Below are positions 31,112 to 43,800 of a stretch of 64,000 bases of DNA, piece by piece. Every line of letters begins with the position of its first letter. Position 1 is the first letter of the stretch. This stretch comes from Promethearchaeota archaeon (GTDB lineage Archaea; Asgardarchaeota; Lokiarchaeia; Sigyniarchaeales; SOKP01). The notes beneath the pieces were generated by a model. It was not told the DNA's origin and did not search any database. It saw only the letters and a list, made by a program, of their open reading frames with translations. Location of the stretch: contig JAEOTS010000004.1 in NCBI GenBank assembly GCA_016839745.1, forward strand, positions 1 to 64,000, in the 5' to 3' direction. The position numbers were made by a program, and so were the translations under genes.

Positions 31112-32338
31112 TTAAGCAGGAATGGGAACTCTACCAACCCCTGGAATTATCGCAGGAAGACCTTTCTTAAGCCTTTCAATCATTGATATTATGCCTAGAG
31201 CCAATAAAGAACTCATAACTCCCGCTATGCCGAAAAATGCCGTCATCTGTTTCTGTCCAGTTTCAGTCGGGATATCAGCAGGAATACCCACCCCGACATC
31301 AGACATAGGACCATCTTCTCCAGTCGTTCCCTCACAACCATCACCTTTATATCCAGTGTTTATTAAATAGTTCATCGCGGCAGCTGAATAATATATAGCA
31401 GTATTCAAATTGTGTTCCAATGTATCGAAATATCTGTCCACATCGCCGAACATTGGTCTATTAAGAGCTGTCCAACTTTCAACCAATTGAGTATTACTAG
31501 GCCAAAACTCATCTTTATGATTGTATAACCATGTTCCATCTTCGTATGTAGAGGCAGTAAAAGACATCAAATAGGAATTACCCCACCTTGTATCCAATCC
31601 TGCCCTGTACACAGCCTCTCGAGGTTCATTTATATCTGAAGCGTCAAAATATAAACGAGCTTCGTTTATACTAAAAAAATCCAATCCGGTACGCACGACC
31701 GATTTTGTAAGGAAATGCATCCTATTTAATAATCCCTGATCTGAAACATAGTTATCAAGATGAGGATAATATGTGGCATCGGAAATGAGATGTACCATTG
31801 CACCGAAGTAATAAGCGATTGCTTTATGATCCCTACCATTCAAACTATTGTCAATATATGGTATCAAACGATCTATTTCCCTCTGCAAACCACCATGTCG
31901 TACTAACTCTTTACCATTCCAGTCATGCATCATATGATTTGTCCCTAAAATGTCATTTCTAACTACACCGCAATCAGTAAACAAACTAACTTTATACTGA
32001 TACTTCGTATCGGGAATTTCCGACCCCACCAAATACCAATACTTCAAAGAATCAACATTATTAAACAAATCTTTTACAAACTCATGACTGGACCTTTCTT
32101 CATAAAGTATTTCAAGAGCTGCTTCCGCTAACCAATCATGGGTAGTGTAGTGAAGGTGTCCTCCACTAATATAGTCTGAACCAAAAGCTGCAGGCGTTAT
32201 AGCATTAGAACCGCCCTTACCCGGGGGAGTATTCCTCCATGCTACAGCAACAGGAGTATAACGCATTGCACACGAAAATAAAGACAAACCCAGGAGAACC
32301 AAAATTAAATAGACAAAGTTAATTTTCCTCATTCTCAA
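31112..32338 (-). CDS. Exported, C-terminally anchored Zn-dependent phospholipase C / S1-P1 nuclease-fold protein
   Basis: Signal peptide ending AVA|W (N-terminal Trp ligand), THDW, GSEIPD, NH, GAMVHLISDATYYPH and a C-terminal TM helix. Confidence 0.75.
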   Translation of the reverse strand: MRMRKINFVYLILVLLGLSLFSCAMRYTPVAVAWRNTPPGKGGSNAITPAAFGSDYISGGHLHYTTHDWLAEAALEILYEERSSHEFVKDLFNNVDSLKYWYLVGSEIPDTKYQYKVSLFTDCGVVRNDILGTNHMMHDWNGKELVRHGGLQREIDRLIPYIDNSLNGRDHKAIAYYFGAMVHLISDATYYPHLDNYVSDQGLLNRMHFLTKSVVRTGLDFFSINEARLYFDASDINEPREAVYRAGLDTRWGNSYLMSFTASTYEDGTWLYNHKDEFWPSNTQLVESWTALNRPMFGDVDRYFDTLEHNLNTAIYYSAAAMNYLINTGYKGDGCEGTTGEDGPMSDVGVGIPADIPTETGQKQMTAFFGIAGVMSSLLALGIISMIERLKKGLPAIIPGVGRVPIPA

Positions 32339-34859: not shown

Positions 34860-37800
34860 CTATATGAAATCTGCTAATATGAAACCTGCTACAGCACCAG
34901 CAAAAAGCGTCATCCAATAGATCCGCATTGTCCTGATTATTACCTTTTGAGCACTGGAACCGGGATGAAGATGCCTCTGTGCTGATAATGCGAAGGATAC
35001 GACCGCGCTTGACACAATGGTACTTAAGAAAACTGGAAACAAAAGAAGAATATCCGAAATCCCATTAAGTAGAATATATCCCGTTGTTTGTCCAATAGCA
35101 TGCAGAAAATTGCCTGAAACTAAGATTACAGCTTGTAATACCACGAAAACTTCGATGTTACGTCTAAAAACACTTAAAAGTTTATCGAGCTTTATACCAA
35201 CCTTGTAAAACTTACTAAATGAAGTTAATTCCATGAGTCCAACCAAGATGAAGTTAATTAATAAACTCATTGCGAATCCTATAAGCCCTCCTTTATTACC
35301 CGTTGCAACTAAACCGCCAATAGTTAATGCTATTGATAATATTACAGACACAAGACTAATTATACTCCCTACTATTGCAATCGTATCAGCGTGTGCCTTA
35401 GAAGCCATCGAACTTATAATTGTAGCGACAAACAGACCTAAAGTTAATGTCCCTGTTACAAAGAACCCAATATTTCTAAAAATATCGGCATAATCATAAA
35501 AAGCTGAGTCTTCTATAGTAAATTCCTTAATATAGTCCGAAACTAATAAAATACCAGAATCAATTGAATAAGGATCTTCATCGTATTCAAACTCAAAATC
35601 CACTTGCCAAGTACCAGTAGAAAGAGTTTTACAATCGACTTTGAAGTAGTAATTTTTAGTTTTTCCATCAGTTGAAGAACGATAATGAAGCATATCAAAC
35701 TCTTCGGTTGTCTCCCCCTGAGAAAAAATAATAACAGGTTTGCTCGATAATCCATAATTGCTATAATCTGATACCTCCACAATATATACAACTTCAACAT
35801 CTCTTGAAATAATTGAACCCTCTCCATATGTACAGTAGGAATTTACCCCAAAGTTGAGTGTGTCCTGAGACACAGATTTAACATAAGGACCCTCAAAATG
35901 GGTTAGATGATCAGGATCTTCATCATCAGAACTTAAAGTAGATATTATCTCACCTGTACTTGACTCAGCCTCAAAATAATATTTAAATGCTCCAATTGTA
36001 TCATCGTCGTAATTTAGATTATCAAAATTAATGTCTACATAGTATTCTACGGGATCGTCATAATCAGGAGAACTTTCGACTTCAGACATTTCGAATTTTT
36101 GAATTCCAACCGTTTTTGATACTCCGGTTCCTATTGATATCTGCGATGGAACTAAACAGAGATTTATCTCAACAGGGGCGTTTCCGTCTACCGTATTCCA
36201 CCAAGTAACATAGAACCTAAAATCGTCTGTGATCCAACCATTTAAATTTGAGTAGTCGTTAGTATCGTCACTAGTAACACGATGACCCATAAGATAAGTT
36301 GGACCTTCTGATGTGTCTGGTCCAACGAAATAGTCATTGATAGGTTGAGTAACTATCTCAGCAGTGTCTTTATCTTTTGTAGAGAAATAATAGTGCCATA
36401 AACCTTCGTCGTAACTTGATAAGTCCACAGTTTTCGTAAAATTTACTCCGGCAAGAATGGAATAATCAGGGTCTTCTGATTCGACCATATCGTAAGAATT
36501 GAGAGCATTGCCGCTTGAATCAATAAGATGCAGTTTAACTCCATATGATATATCGGGAGCCTTATGGTTTGGATCGTAATAATTTGTCCAAAACTCATAC
36601 GATCCAGCTCCCTTATCGATAAAACCGCAATGGAGAGTCGGAGGGGTATCCTCCGTCGCTGGAAGAGTTGGAACAGTATTTTGCCCTGTACTTTCTAAAG
36701 TCTCGCCAGATAATATGTCCTGACTCTGTTCATACACCACCGTATCACCAGAAATACTCTTATCTACAACCCAAGGAACATAGAGGTCAAAAAACTCCCA
36801 ATACATCCATTCGATCCAGTATTCTGTCCTAATCTTGTTGTTTGGGGAACTCAATTCGATATAACCTGCAAGATGATTCTTCCCATACTCTAATGGAAAA
36901 GAAATACCAAAAGAGGATTCAATATCTCCCAAAAAGCTAAATGCCAAAAATGATACACCAATAGTTAAAACTGTTATAGTAATAAACAGAAATTCTATTG
37001 CCAACATTATCCAAAATAATACATACAACGCAGCTCGAGCAATTAGCCACAATAGGTCTCCCAGCGCAGTTAATATAGCCATGAAAATGTTAGCGGCAAA
37101 ATTAACTAAGTACTGATAAAATGTTCCGCGAGTCATAGCCATTTGGGCGTGAAGCATGATATACAGAATAGGGTTAATTAAGCACATTAACCAAAGGAGC
37201 ATATCTGTAATACCACCCTCTGGTTCTGGCTCGTCCCCCATCGCCGAACTTGTATACGTATTGAACCATGGAATGTAGCCAAGAACGGAATATGGCAAGC
37301 CCATTTCAGATGCCATAGTGCCGTTAATTTTGGTGCTCACGTAGTCGTGAATCTTCTCGTATATAGTATTGTTACTTTCGTCTAAAGTATCGTTTACGCA
37401 ACCCCATAAGATTAATTCTAATACATCCATCGCATCTTCTGGAGAAATACCGAGTCGGGTGAATAAGAAATCGACGTCTGAATTCGCTGTATCTGGGTTC
37501 CCGTCTCTTGCAATTGCGGTGAACTCGAACACGTGCTCATCGGGGTGATAGAGCGGTGTTAGGTCGAGAGTGTCGTTTTCCACGTACCCGTTTAGCTTCG
37601 TGTGAGTAAAAAGCTCGGTAGGCACGACGATTACGTTCATTCCGTGCTCGAATGGAGTTCCTTCTACTGAGTAAGTCAGACCATTATCGCCAATATCGTA
37701 ATTAGCATCCCAAGAATATCCGAAAGCGTCAAAATAGGAGTAAAAAGGGTCACCCGTCGTTGCTATTTTCAGCTTATTAATAGAATCTTCGTCGTTATAA

Positions 37801-40800
37801 AACGGAGCATCGATCACTTTTAGAACGCCATCCACGTACAAATCGAAGCGATAAAGTCCAGCCTCTCCAACTTTGCACTCAAAAAAAAGCTTCATTCGGT
37901 ACCAAGTGTCTGAACTCGCGCTCATTACGTCGTGGTAGCTTCCGTCGTGATATTTTATCTTCCCATCTCTCATAAACAACCGAATTACTTCAGTGTCATC
38001 GTTTTCAAGGTAAAAATACGAAACACCACCACTTATTTTAGAAGTTCGCCACCACCATTCGATCGTTCCATAGGCTTGAGAGGAGGTAAAATTGTGATCA
38101 AAATCTGCGTGATCGTCTAATCCTCCTTGAACGCGCAAAACGTTACTATGACCGTCAATTTCCTCGATGATTTTGACGTAACTCTCCACATCCGAGCAAT
38201 CAAAAGAAACAAAATCAATGTTCGTGCAATTATTACCAATCTCCTCGTTAAGAAAAGATTCAGAACCTAAATAATGTCCTTCGTCAGGAATGGTTAGCTG
38301 GATGAGAGTGTATCGCTGATTTGGATCGTTGTAATGACCGTTAAAAGTGGTATTTGCATTGAAGATTGCAAGCGTGTTAGCTTTTTCGATAGCAACCGTC
38401 TTAACTTTTACCTCTAACTCGTTGAGGTGACCGAAATACCCCGTCTGATTGGCATATACGGTAGTATAGGTTTCACTTGGAGTACCAATGCTATAATCGT
38501 CGTTTCCGTCGATTATTTCGACATCAGACAATCCCCTATGGCGTCTTACGTGCCACATCTGGAGGTGCATGGTTATTGTATTGCTCTGTCTAACTGTGTC
38601 GTCGTCGATGTTAATGTAGTAATGGTCGCCAAAGTAGGCAGTTTGATAATACCCGAACCCGTTTGCGTATTCAGTTCCTTGAGCTACAGGCGTGACGATA
38701 TAATACTCGTTCTCGCCAAAAGTAAACGCAACCGAGATTTGGAGTAGCGCGTGTAAATCTAGGATAGCTAGGTTTCTAAAAATGCCTTTGTAGGGATGAA
38801 TCTCAAGCATGACATCCCTGAGCGGATCTCTATCGTTAGGGTCCCAACTTTCGTCTCCATCGGAGTCAACGCTTACCGGACTAGTTCCTTTAGTAAATAT
38901 CTCGTAATTATCGCTCCAACCATCACCGTCGGTATCTTCCTCGGCGGGATCTGTAACCCAAGCTATGGTATCGTTGAAATCAGCCACTACATAAGTATCA
39001 GTCTCGATCTCAAACTTAGTAAGGTTAAAGACATCGGTAGAAGCCGTGCTGAAGGCTTGAACTCTTAGGTGATACGTACCATAGACTTGTCCACTCGTTA
39101 CGTAAGGGGATAAATCGATCGATTTTTGGTAAGTGAACTGCTCAGAGGAGTCAAACTCTTTGCAATAGGCGAGCAAAACTATATCGGATTTCGTTAAGTT
39201 CATCTCTTCCTTAATAAGCTGAACAAAAACCCTCCCGCTTCCCTCTGTGCTACTATCAGATTTTACCTCTAGGTCAAGTTGACCGTCGGTTACTTTCCCG
39301 ATGTGCGGTATTTCCAGATAATACTCGTCAGGCGCGGTTAGCTCCATTTCTTGAGAATTATTATTATCGCCAATTTCGTAATCAGAATCCCAGGAAAACC
39401 CAATGCCATCAACATACATCCAATAAGCGTTATAAGTCCCCCAACCATATGTAACAAATCTTAGCACTCCAACATCGTCGTCAAAATTGGCGGGCATTTC
39501 CCCCGTGTCAGTCTTTAATACTCCGTCAATCCATATACTAAAAGTATCGGCAGAACAATCAAATTCAAACTTCACGTGATACCATTGGTTATTATTACAA
39601 ACTTGCAATAGATTACCGTTTCCATCGTAGAAATTACCTCCACTTGAATGTAAAGCATGCATTCCAACAGTCATAGAATCGTCTTCGAATATCTGCATAA
39701 ATCGAGATTCAGCAACTCCATCATATCGCAACCACACTTCTATCGTCCCATCATCAACAGGAGTGAATTCGTTATACATACTCGCATAACAGGTTGTGTC
39801 TGCGTAATGATCATACAGTTCTACCACTTTATCGTGTCCATCTAATGACGCGAGAACTTCTACATCGCAATAATCTCCCTCGTAACTAACCCAACCTGCA
39901 GGGAGTCCCCCCACAGTATCGTCTTCGAAACTATACGTTCCAGGATAATGACCGATTTTTGGATCGGAAGGGAGTTGGTTTTCGTAATTCTCTCCTTCCC
40001 AATAAGTCCAATTCCAAGTAAATCCAATAGCGTCAAGATAGGTGTCGTAACCGCTCGAGCCAGAGTCTGTGCCAAACATTAGTTTATCCAGACTCTGACA
40101 ATTATCGTCAAAATCAATATCTTCAGCTTCTAAGGTTCCATCAATAAACCATGTGAACGTTCCTTTAGCGCCATCGCTACAATTAAACGCGATCTTGTGG
40201 TGATACCAAGTATTTTCGTCGTACTTCCCCACATCGTGATAAGTGCCATCATACCAAGCAAATTTACCCGTATCTCTCATGTAAAGCGTTAGCGCAGTCC
40301 CTGTACCGTCGTCGTACAATCGTACTAAACTATCTTGGTCGTCAGCGGTTTGAGCCCACCAGAACTCTATCGTGCCGTTTTGTCTCTCGAACGCGGTATT
40401 GTAGGCGTAGACTTTACCCCCACTATTTTCGTCTGAAAGTTCCAATACCTTATTGTGATATTCGAACTCTTTTACTATCGTAGCTACGCAAGAAGAATCA
40501 ACCGACACGTAATCGATAAAACTTATATTCGCGTTAGTAGTGCCATCAGCTTCCTCTTCGAAAGAATAAGTCGCCGAAAAGTTTCCGATAGCGTTTTGAG
40601 TTAAGTTATTGGAAAGATAATAGTCCTCAAAGTCTATAAGGTCAGTACCTTCGACAAGGACTCCCATCTCTACGCCATCGAGAATACCGTCGTCATCGGA
40701 GTCGGGATCGTTTGGATCTAAATATCGACAGAACTCGAGCTCAAAATAATCTAAGTAGCAGCCTGCTTCCAAAGGATCAACTAAATTATCACCGATATCG

Positions 40801-43800
40801 TAATCAGGATCCCAAGAATATCCGACTGCGTCAAAATTCACCTTGTAATTAGCATGCCATCCTGAAGGTGAAACATAAAAATTATCAAAGTGCGCTTGAG
40901 GACTATATCCTCCTATGCTTCCAGAACTAATTCCGTTTATGATAATTTCAAATTGATGTTGACCTAAACCCATATATCCACCAGTAGAACATTCAAAATG
41001 AATGAGTATATGTTGCCATACATTATCTAATGGAATAGGGACATTAGGGACATCAAAGGATCCACCAGAATAATATTTCCATTTATCATCTTGAGCATTA
41101 AGTAACAATCCTACAGCAGAACCATGTCTTAGAAAAATATAATTTGCATGATTCCAATTTACATTGCTTGACCGAAACCATAATTCTACAGAACCATACT
41201 CTTGATCGTCAAAATTGTTCCAAGTATTCGCTAAATGACCACTTCCTGCTGTTGTAGTAGCAATCTCTACAATTTGGTTATGATTTCCTAAGCTCCCTAA
41301 AACCGAGACTGTGCTTCCAGTACCTTCGTAAACTTCCCAATTATCTGGATCTCCTCCGATAGCATCGTCCTCGAAACTGTATGTGCCTTGATAAGCTCCA
41401 TCCGTTTGATATTTATAATCGTAATTTTCCTCTTCCTTATTGTCACCGATTGCGTAACTGGGGTCCCACGAATATCCAAACGCGTCGTAATGCGCGTAAT
41501 AAGGTCCATCGTATCCGGAGGAGAGCATCCTCAAACGATCACAGCTACCTAAACTGTTCTGATAATTATATGGACCATACTTAGTACCGTCTATGTATAC
41601 ATAAAAGGTATCCGCAGAGAGCCCTTCATAACCTCCTGATCCGCATTCAAAATCGATTCGGACGTGATAAAACTGATTTGCTGTTGCTGAACGTATATTG
41701 TGCCAGCTACCATCATTGTATCTAAAATAATTTAAACCCATTGCCACTACAAGTCCAACAGAGCTCCCAGAATAGAGCAAAACCTGAGAATAATAATACG
41801 GAGTGTTAACGGTCATCCAATACTCGACCGTACCACTGGTTTGAGCGGAATCAAAATAGTTATAAACCGAGACGTAATCTCCACCAGTATCATAACTTTG
41901 ATCTTTTAGTTCTAATACCTTCTTATGTCCCCACTTTTGAGATATGATCTTTGCGTGACAATCAGTACCTTGATGGCATTCGTTGATAAAATCTATATCT
42001 GTTCCTGTTTCCCCATCGTCTTCAGTTGCAAACGAGTACGTACCTTTATACTCGCCTTCTTTTTGTGTGGTTCCGCCAGGCACTCCAATTCCAATCTTGT
42101 AGTCACCCCAATAATCCAAACCTAAACTCTCGTCATTCATAATAGGAGTGACATCTACAACTTGACTAAAGTATCTGGTATTATTCGTTGAGAAATTTGC
42201 AAGTAACACACCATCGTCTTTTTTAGTAATTACTACGTACAGATCTTGCACGTCTTCGTCTGGAACTCCGTAGCTGTCGGTCGCGTTTTGACCATATTCG
42301 CCAAAAGAGATACCAAAACTAATTTGAGCGGCAACAGCTTGCTCGAAATGGTGAGGGAAATGAAGCGAAATGGGAGCAGAGAGGTTAACTTTTTTGTCGA
42401 GGTCGTCAAACCCATCGTCCTGCAATTTTACAAGGTAGTTCTTAATCTCGGCAGAATCGCTTATATGATCGTGGTCTGTATCTGCTTCGAGGGGGTTGGT
42501 AAAGAACCCAATTCCCCACCCATATACCTCTTCTCCATCCTTTAGACCATCTTGATCTGAATCTGTATTATTATAATCAGTTCCTCTAGCTATTTCTTCG
42601 AAATCCGATAGCAAATCATTATCACCATCCCAATTTGCTGGGAAGGGGTCAATATCGTCAGTTAGATCGTCGTTGTCGGTGTCGGCTTGTCGGGGATGAG
42701 ACCCCGCATAGTATTCTTCGTAATCGCTTAGCCCATCATCGTCTGTATCCGATTCTAACGAATCAGATGTAATGTGAAAGTTAGTGGTATTTTCGAAATA
42801 CACCACAGTTATGTTCCATCCAATGTATTCGGTTCCATCTGAGAGGAAATCATCGTCCGTATCCCAATCTAACGGGTCGGTGGAAACTGCTAGTTCTCCT
42901 ACGCTTCCGTTCACCGTTTGCCCGTCCCATAACAAATCACCATCGGTATCTGGGTCTAAGTACGAGGTATTACTCACAGTCATCTCGTAAGTATCAGTTA
43001 ACCCATCACCGTCCGTATCTGTGGGATCGTCGGAGGTTCTAAGCATTTCCTCTGTGTTGTCATCCACTCCATCCAGAGAGGAGTCAATTGTAGAAACGAT
43101 CTGAAAGGTGCAAACTTTTTCATTTCCTTCTGGGTCGCACACTCTCACCTCCCCTTGATAGGTAGTAGTTTCTCTACAGGTAAAGGTGACAGTTGAGTGA
43201 AGTTGATACCTATCGTCCCCAAGTCTAACAACCTTCTTACCGTTACGAATCGTCCAGAAAAAGTATAACTTTTCGGAATCTAATAGCGTATCCATACCAT
43301 AAACTTTTAACTCCAGTTCGCCATCGTTTTCGAACGAATAATCCCCTACAACACCGTGATACATATAGTTCGACATATAAATCTCGGGGGATAAGGAATG
43401 CATGGTCACCACAATTTCTTTTGAACTTCTCATACCCGATGGATCGACAACCTCCAGCGTGTAAGTATAGGTGCCGTCGTCTAAGTTAAAGACCGGTTTT
43501 TGCTCTTGCGACACTAATGTTCCCTTATCGTCGTACCAGAAGTATTCTAATTTTAACTCGTCTTTGTTTGAATCGTAAATTTCCACGTCGAGAACGATGG
43601 AGCTTCCTTCAGAACCTTGAAACGCGAACGGACCAACTATTTCAGGTGCCTTTGAAAGGATGGTTATGTTTTTTTGGTCTCGATGGATGTTTCCATACGG
43701 ATCGGCAATAGCTAAGGTAATGTTATACACTCCCGCATCAAGCCAAGCGTGTTTAGCGTGTTCTGAATAAGCAACGGTTCCATCGCCAAAGTCCCACATG

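Follow-up and report, generated by a model that had tools for sequence, protein, structure and literature searches.

How did five lectin-like modules come to lie within a single giant surface protein of an Asgard archaeon, and are they inserted into other domains or simply strung between them? The question is raised by a window of 64,000 nucleotides from contig JAEOTS010000004.1 of a Promethearchaeota archaeon (assembly GCA_016839745.1, positions 1 to 64,000), in which positions 34860-46106 of the minus strand form one open reading frame (ORF) of 3,748 amino acids (aa), hereafter P1. We conclude with considerable confidence that P1 is a membrane-anchored giant surface protein in which a conserved scaffold stalk carries lectin-type cassettes, inserted in permissive loops and gained, lost and exchanged in the course of evolution. 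The stalk would be rigid and Ca-binding, consisting of two homologous units, each a TSP3 motif plus a jelly roll, followed by a C2-like sandwich and a conserved C-terminal domain. It would serve as the scaffold through whose surface loops ConA/LamG-like modules bud, presumably facing outward: at site 1, a tandem pair from within the final hairpin of jelly roll 1; at site 2, two more from behind the first strand of jelly roll 2; and at site 3, a single module from a conserved loop further along, with the host fold closing again past each insert. The ancestral scaffold would have been empty, with inserts gained independently at permissive loops in separate lineages and occasionally lost, and module-length gene conversion or recombination would then have swapped modules among positions and among genes, on a slowly evolving scaffold.

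The five modules (M1 to M5, Table 1) are 197-206 aa long, share 25-35% pairwise identity, and have in common the end motifs G.Y.GTYSF (start) and DA.GYSWD..Y.IGDN (end) as well as 19 invariant columns, mostly Gly, Trp, Phe and Cys. A profile built from the five finds 7 further copies in the same 3.5-Mb genome (E 1e-16 to 1e-57), 5 of which belong to a collinear paralogue on contig C119, 3,784 aa in length, and has matches in 25 of 41 related genomes, in host proteins of about 300 to 13,771 aa. Because the profile matches independent copies both in its own genome and in these relatives, the modules are, by sequence, real homologous domains and not chance similarities. The first-pass annotation, made from the nucleotide sequence without database searches, had described five such modules with sharp ends at positions 37683-42480, that is, from the M5 end to just before host unit 1. 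The coordinates, end motifs and profile search agree with that description, every one of the flanking strings that it quoted was found in its place in P1, and the scan of relatives for the module, which it had proposed, recovered it in unrelated host proteins as well. Its division of the modules into two subtypes in the order A-B, A-B, A is weakly supported: it depends on an indel of 4 residues, two clades are not resolved in the module tree, and orthologues do not preserve the order.

Two of the other proteins with modules are of note. One, of 1,142 aa (L037, G010:C2:61419-65033), contains near-perfect tandem repeats, 292 aa in period, in which a module is paired with an Ig-like spacer of 87 aa; the other, an open frame of 13,771 aa in a relative of the same genus (L040, G017:C74), carries at least three tandem modules.

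The modules of P1 could likewise be beads on a string, in which case host 1 would end before M1, host 2 would start after M4, and aa 1775-1837 would be a linker with a Ca-binding motif. The regular alternation of module and Ig-like spacer elsewhere in the genus, where the module is a plain bead, speaks for such an arrangement, and so does the lack of any fold match that spans both flanks of site 3. At site 1, however, the flanks adjoin when the naturally empty scaffold of genome G008 is modelled with AlphaFold (P0002, 691 aa; 45-row alignment; predicted local distance difference test score, pLDDT, 88.4; predicted template modelling score, pTM, 0.80). In this model, site 1 (between residues 167 and 168) falls in the loop of 6 residues that joins strands 157-163 and 170-182, which follow one another in the same jelly roll. 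The host-1 domain spans residues 46-182, with matches to the N-domain of PNGase F (1pgs; Z 9.7, root-mean-square deviation, rmsd, 2.7, 111 aligned) and the furin P domain (Z 9.3), and seven jelly-roll matches in the Protein Data Bank (PDB) end at residue 181-182. Since the fold matches span about 46-182, the strand that follows the insert belongs to the matched domain. Site 2 (about 222-233) comes after strand 204-212, and most matches to host 2 (birnavirus VP2 P-domain and nanovirus capsid; Z 8.5-9.2) start at 205-207, so that the strand preceding the insert is included.

The same strands reappear in a model of the filled stalk (P1 aa 1215-2400; 25-row alignment of full-length relatives; pLDDT 75.3), the pTM of which, 0.35, is as low as budding domains would lead one to expect. 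All 9 host-1 elements recur one to one, as do 9 of the 10 host-2 elements, the short strand 223-225 beside site 2 being the one that cannot be clearly matched. The strand that closes host 1 (170-182 in the empty model) is found at 570-581 (12 residues; P1 1784-1795) with a pLDDT of 87, flanked on either side by linkers below 55, and the strand that opens host 2 (204-212) at 603-611 (P1 1817-1825) with a pLDDT of about 70; the supposed linker is thus predicted to form long strands. Between M2 and M3, a segment of 51 aa shares 69-84% identity with relatives and is as conserved as the host domains, compared with 25-44% for M1, M2 and M4. Finally, the two hosts align end to end, these strands included, in a profile-profile comparison (hhalign probability 95%, E 3.8e-8, 141 columns), in which sites 1 and 2 occupy non-equivalent, reciprocal loops. 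Such a comparison was required for the host homology because blastp of the module-deleted copies is weak, yielding only short high-scoring segment pairs with E 4e-04 to 0.003. Taken together, these models and alignments support the view that sites 1 and 2 split a host jelly roll and make a string of complete domains quite unlikely. The two homologous units of TSP3 repeats and beta-sandwich, with reciprocally filled and empty sites, had been read from the sequence by the first-pass annotation and are upheld by the alignment, and the splitting of host domains that it expected from structure prediction is supported at sites 1 and 2.

For site 3, the inserted-cassette reading is plausible. In the empty model, this site lies in a confidently modelled loop of 11 residues that separates strands 594-601 and 613-620, downstream of the C2-like sandwich, but two PDB fold searches with that model, one of them wider, gave no match covering P0002 571-691. 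Thus, the earlier proposal of plug-in cassettes in host-domain loops is supported by models and empty homologues for the first two sites, and is plausible for the third. An independent domain to the right of site 3 was considered and rejected: the proteins that suggested it proved to be N-terminally truncated, site-3-filled fragments. The C2-like sandwich itself (window about 38380-38830, P1 aa ~2425-2575, P0002 403-570) resembles the C2 domain of cPLA2 (Z 11.7, rmsd 3.1, 123 aligned). Downstream of it stands FNGHY ... GTPF..G.N.IVIPT.LF, the best conserved of the family's motifs, the GTPF..G.N.IVIPT.LF part of which lies in the right flank of site 3.

If the modules are insertions, scaffolds without them should exist, and they do. 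A HMMER search with the empty scaffold against 1.84 billion representatives gave 79 homologues at E < 1e-30, for which a census of site states was made with flank profiles; states are given below in the order site 1/site 2/site 3, with E for empty and F for filled. E/E/E is the majority state among the scaffold homologues, which were drawn from the genus as well as from metagenomes. The proteins of G008 (2,315 aa) and G056 (2,339 aa) are E/E/E and contain no modules at all, while being collinear in the rest of the sequence, at 30-42% identity. A third E/E/E protein (G014:C220, 3,543 aa) has modules elsewhere in its sequence. The paralogue within the genome of the window (G000:C119, 3,784 aa) and the orthologue of G045 (3,810 aa) are F/F/F. 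Mixed states also occur: E/F/E, with two modules at site 2 only (G014:C169, 4,047 aa), and, in the database census, E/E/F (P0006) and F/E/F with one module at site 1 (P0157). The presence/absence comparison that the first-pass annotation had proposed thus shows that not all orthologues carry the modules.

The empty junctions are sharp at site 1 (...YYGNYILEVNDPT directly followed by AGCLVEQFELEF...) and at site 3 (...QLHIIDSG directly followed by VGTPF...); these were taken from junction tables, as MAFFT placed the empty-state strand 'ILEVNDPT' inside M1, an artefact. Site 2 is an insertion hotspot, occupied by 0, 1, 2 or 3 modules, by a canonical LamG_3 domain, or by unrelated inserts of 329, 383, 495 and 1,343 aa. 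Inserts of a non-LamG type are present at this site in P0013, P0019, P0028, P0155 and P0158, and one of them consists of three repeats of ~120 aa. The site-3-filled fragments P0041, P0108 and P0116 carry module types unrelated to M5.

The direction of change was assessed on a midpoint-rooted tree of the concatenated scaffold flanks (46 rows, inserts excluded). The filled state of site 1 needs 1 change on this tree, within a clade (starred support 100) nested among empties, compared with at least two changes for site 3 and about eight for site 2. Judging from these sequences, the simplest and most likely reading is that permissive points gained inserts repeatedly and lost them occasionally, the empty scaffold being ancestral. 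The opposite polarity, with a filled ancestor, empties derived by repeated precise deletion and nothing ever plugged in, can appeal to a root that is merely the midpoint and to at least one clean secondary loss, that of P0157, which branches within the F/F/F clade and whose site 2 keeps the module lead-in (...NNLTQNTLGNTSA directly followed by ELTAPD...), by its sequence a scar of secondary deletion. The ancestral-type empties, unlike P0157, are free of such scars; site 1 is empty in all deep clades and in about 35 representatives, with the filled clade nested among them (starred support 97-100); site 2 houses unrelated domain families across lineages; and the module types at site 3 of P0006, P0041 and P0108 are non-orthologous. 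Given that the insert types at site 2 and at site 3 differ among lineages, loss alone is insufficient, and we consider a filled ancestor very unlikely.

Several points nevertheless weigh against the insertion of cassettes into loops of an ancestrally empty stalk. The pairing of the separated strands with the host sheets is deduced from secondary structure, pLDDT and the ranges of fold matches. The matches that delimit the host domains are middling (Z 9-10), and one host-2 match begins only at residue 222, past the first strand, as it would if the modules were beads. The alignment behind the filled model is shallow over the modules (4-8 rows), in addition to the low pTM, and the 50 structural matches listed for this model are all to modules, so that reconstitution of host 1 across the insert is not readable from their ranges. 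None of the matched folds reaches site 3, which may therefore be nothing more than a junction between domains. Many of the database homologues are fragments from short contigs, and, the scaffold tree being unrooted and only drawn from its midpoint, the choice between gain and loss rests on parsimony.

The cassettes inserted in the stalk appear to have turned over at unequal rates. In the module tree, the M3-type (position s2a) and M5-type (s3a) modules follow the scaffold phylogeny and are vertically inherited in the F/F/F clade; the other three of the five positions (s1a, s1b, s2b) are scrambled among relatives, with starred support, and hence non-orthologous. The nearest relatives of M4 are both site-1 modules of the G045 orthologue (starred support 99), that of M1 is the second module of site 1 (s1b) in P0026 (97), and M2 has no close relative. 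Other cross-position pairs join P0154 s1b with P0026 s2b, and P0153 s1a with its own s2b. Within the C119 paralogue (L052, G000:C119:5781-17132), aa 1353-1556 and 2058-2261, the first position of site 1 and the second of site 2, are 90.5% identical over 611 nucleotides (nt); this patch is exactly one module, bounded by the end motifs, and looks like a recent duplication or gene conversion of one cassette. The interior of M2 is a compositional island, with a GC content at third codon positions (GC3) of 0.14-0.26 in a gene of GC3 0.38, consistent with replacement by a resident cassette.

The 3' ends of M2 and M5 share 53 nt at 88.7% identity. Codon identity at identical residues is 0.55 at the module 3' ends vs 0.39 in the interior, an excess that is only a hint because module pairs are not independent. 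It is conceivable, but doubtful, that module ends act as recombination handles by which cassettes are swapped among loops of several giant genes, resulting in programmed or recurrent surface variation. As regards a diversity-generating retroelement template, blastn of the whole coding sequence against the 3.5-Mb, 89%-complete genome found no module repeat, although reverse transcriptase was not searched for; only the 53-nt ends of M2 and M5 and scaffold segments of the paralogue matched. The turnover of modules could be adaptive, and P1 could then belong to a surface-diversification system, as the first-pass annotation suggested.

What kind of domain is being exchanged? Pfam Laminin_G_3 (PF13385) weakly matches 3 of the 5 modules (best E 3e-6) and Sialidase-like_CBM (PF22585) 1 of the 5 (E 0.015); neither is listed by the whole-protein scan of P1 at E <= 0.1, and both are present in precomputed Pfam assignments of the homologues P0015, P0026 and P0154. 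The module profile gave nothing below E 0.5 against PDB sequences. In structural comparison, M3 of the filled model matches the carbohydrate-binding module (CBM)-like domain of the sialidase BT_1020 (5mqr 413-613) with Z 23.3 and an rmsd of 2.5 Å over 177 of ~200 residues, 6 Z units above the remaining ConA-like lectins and glucanases among the 50 matches listed. M1, M2 and M4 match members of the ConA-like superfamily at Z 15.9-16.1, and the other matches listed for M1-M4 include lectin domains of the V. cholerae sialidase and Emp46p. With a best match so clear of the others, the designation lectin-like holds for the predicted fold, and by analogy the modules may bind glycans or other ligands. 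That the modules are instead catalytic (GH16-like glycanases, lyases or sialidase-associated), making P1 a surface glycan-processing enzyme array and not an adhesin or lectin, is highly improbable, as the many GH16 glucanases, alginate lyases and GH131 enzymes among the structural neighbours (Z 15-17) rank below the non-catalytic BT_1020 domain and are accompanied by lectin domains, the invariant columns are of the mostly Gly, Trp, Phe and Cys kind noted above, and the only Pfam families matched by the modules are LamG_3 and Sialidase-like_CBM.

Table 1. Features of P1, with residue numbers in the protein and positions in the 64,000-nucleotide window
Feature	P1 residues (aa)	Window position	Strand	Remarks
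Giant ORF P1		34860..46106	-	N-terminal membrane anchor, PKD domains, TSP3-like Ca-binding repeats, module-bearing stalk, hydrophobic helical blocks in the C-terminal quarter
Host jelly roll 1, N-terminal part	1221-1350	42057..42446	-	Predicted; 8 of 9 secondary-structure elements; ends in strand ...GDYKIGIGV
M1	1351-1556	41439..42056	-	Site 1, first position
M2	1570-1774	40785..41399	-	Site 1, second position; interior with genome-like low GC3
Inter-module segment	1775-1837	40596..40784	-	Predicted host-1 closing strand AGCYLDYFELEF, TSP3-like Ca-binding motif, predicted first host-2 strand LVEGTDLID
M3	1838-2040	39987..40595	-	Site 2, first position
M4	2052-2248	39363..39953	-	Site 2, second position
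Host jelly roll 2, body	2249-2374	38985..39362	-	Predicted; empty-model domain P0002 205-354; infectious bursal disease virus (IBDV) VP2 P-domain, Z 9.2
Site-3 left side	2375-2609	38280..38984	-	TSP3-like motif, C2-like beta-sandwich, strongly conserved left flank ending ...RYTLIQLTIPDE
M5	2610-2808	37683..38279	-	Site 3
Site-3 right flank	2809-2900	37407..37682	-	Strand 613-620 of the empty model, plus helices

Outside the stalk, P1 starts with a single hydrophobic anchor followed by PKD domains, the only Pfam families found at E <= 0.1 in the whole-protein scan (E 1e-39); TSP3_bac is a weak match in a scaffold homologue. The C-terminal quarter (window 34860-37200) contains, besides the N-terminal anchor, two separate blocks of long hydrophobic helices, which is unusual for an adhesin. 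The gene is compositionally foreign, with a GC3 of 0.38 overall and 0.40-0.52 across most of its length, compared with a median of 0.258 and a 99th percentile of 0.366 for the ORFs of the genome; the C119 paralogue, at 0.257, is typical of the genome, and within the P1 gene M2 and the final ~400 codons have native-like values. One possible history is that the gene was acquired horizontally and then replaced patch by patch. A gene for a Zn-dependent phospholipase-C-like protein (PF00882, E 6e-5) lies 2.5-3.3 kb downstream of each giant paralogue (window 31112-32338 on the minus strand, and G000:C119:1209-2441, also on the minus strand), the two copies being 33% identical. No functional context emerged from the neighbour genes of the giant gene.

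The P1 family is a natural series in which loops of beta-sandwiches can be compared before and after domain insertion and after exchange of the inserts, with three loops being reused, one of which takes at least five unrelated insert types; as such, it would be useful for understanding the evolution of giant adhesins and for locating permissive insertion points in protein engineering. The surface proteins of Asgard archaea are almost unstudied, even though cell-cell contacts of these organisms are central to ideas on eukaryogenesis, and the fast-turnover positions M1, M2 and M4 are obvious candidates for partner or substrate recognition. If true, variation by cassette swapping would be akin to antigenic and adhesin variation in bacteria and would bear on partner recognition by syntrophic cells.

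Among known systems, the ConA-like superfamily (PF13385, PF22585) shares with the modules a curved two-sheet sandwich (jelly-roll) fold of ~200 residues with adjacent termini, well suited to loop insertion. The modules are 7-15% identical to the solved structures and form a distinctive subfamily with end motifs of its own. Nested domains in general resemble P1 in that one domain lies within a loop of another, and the modular surface proteins with LamG domains of DPANN/Nanohaloarchaeota (PMC10266531) resemble it in being giant, archaeal and rich in LamG-type modules. In contrast to these cases, the same three loops of the P1 family are hit repeatedly and independently, several families enter one of these loops, and modules swap loops. 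In the literature on Asgard LamG and surface proteins and on nested domains in giant archaeal proteins, no description of P1-type insertion was found.

The closest known design is the split domain of bacterial RTX adhesins. In AhLap, FrhA and MpIBP, a beta-sandwich is split by the ligand-binding domain that buds from it and is completed once the chain comes back; the RTX-like unit of AhLap is split after its first strand, and the inserts include lectin-like CBMs with adjacent termini (PMC12077191, PMC10865825). Since these adhesins use split domains in the same way, the design as such is not unprecedented (PMC12077191). Both are long fibrillar surface proteins stiffened by Ca, and in both a domain of a ligand-binding type leaves and re-enters a split beta-sandwich, as predicted for sites 1 and 2 of P1. 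Nevertheless, the organism of P1 is archaeal and lacks an outer membrane; its hosts are jelly rolls after TSP3-like motifs, compared with Ig-like extender-type domains in RTX adhesins; its inserts come as tandem pairs; and it combines an N-terminal anchor with C-terminal multi-helix hydrophobic blocks in place of an N-terminal outer-membrane retention module. The RTX (HemolysinCabind) repeat is absent from the whole-protein Pfam scan of P1 at E <= 0.1, a type I secretion signal not having been searched for. With no Pfam RTX repeats, an archaeal lineage and jelly-roll hosts preceded by TSP3-like motifs, P1 is not a member of the RTX family. A further difference is that the P1 family is documented in naturally empty, filled and mixed states and shows shuffling of cassettes. 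A split-domain, ligand-projecting design so far associated with the RTX adhesins of Gram-negative bacteria would have an independent counterpart in Asgard archaea (Promethearchaeota).

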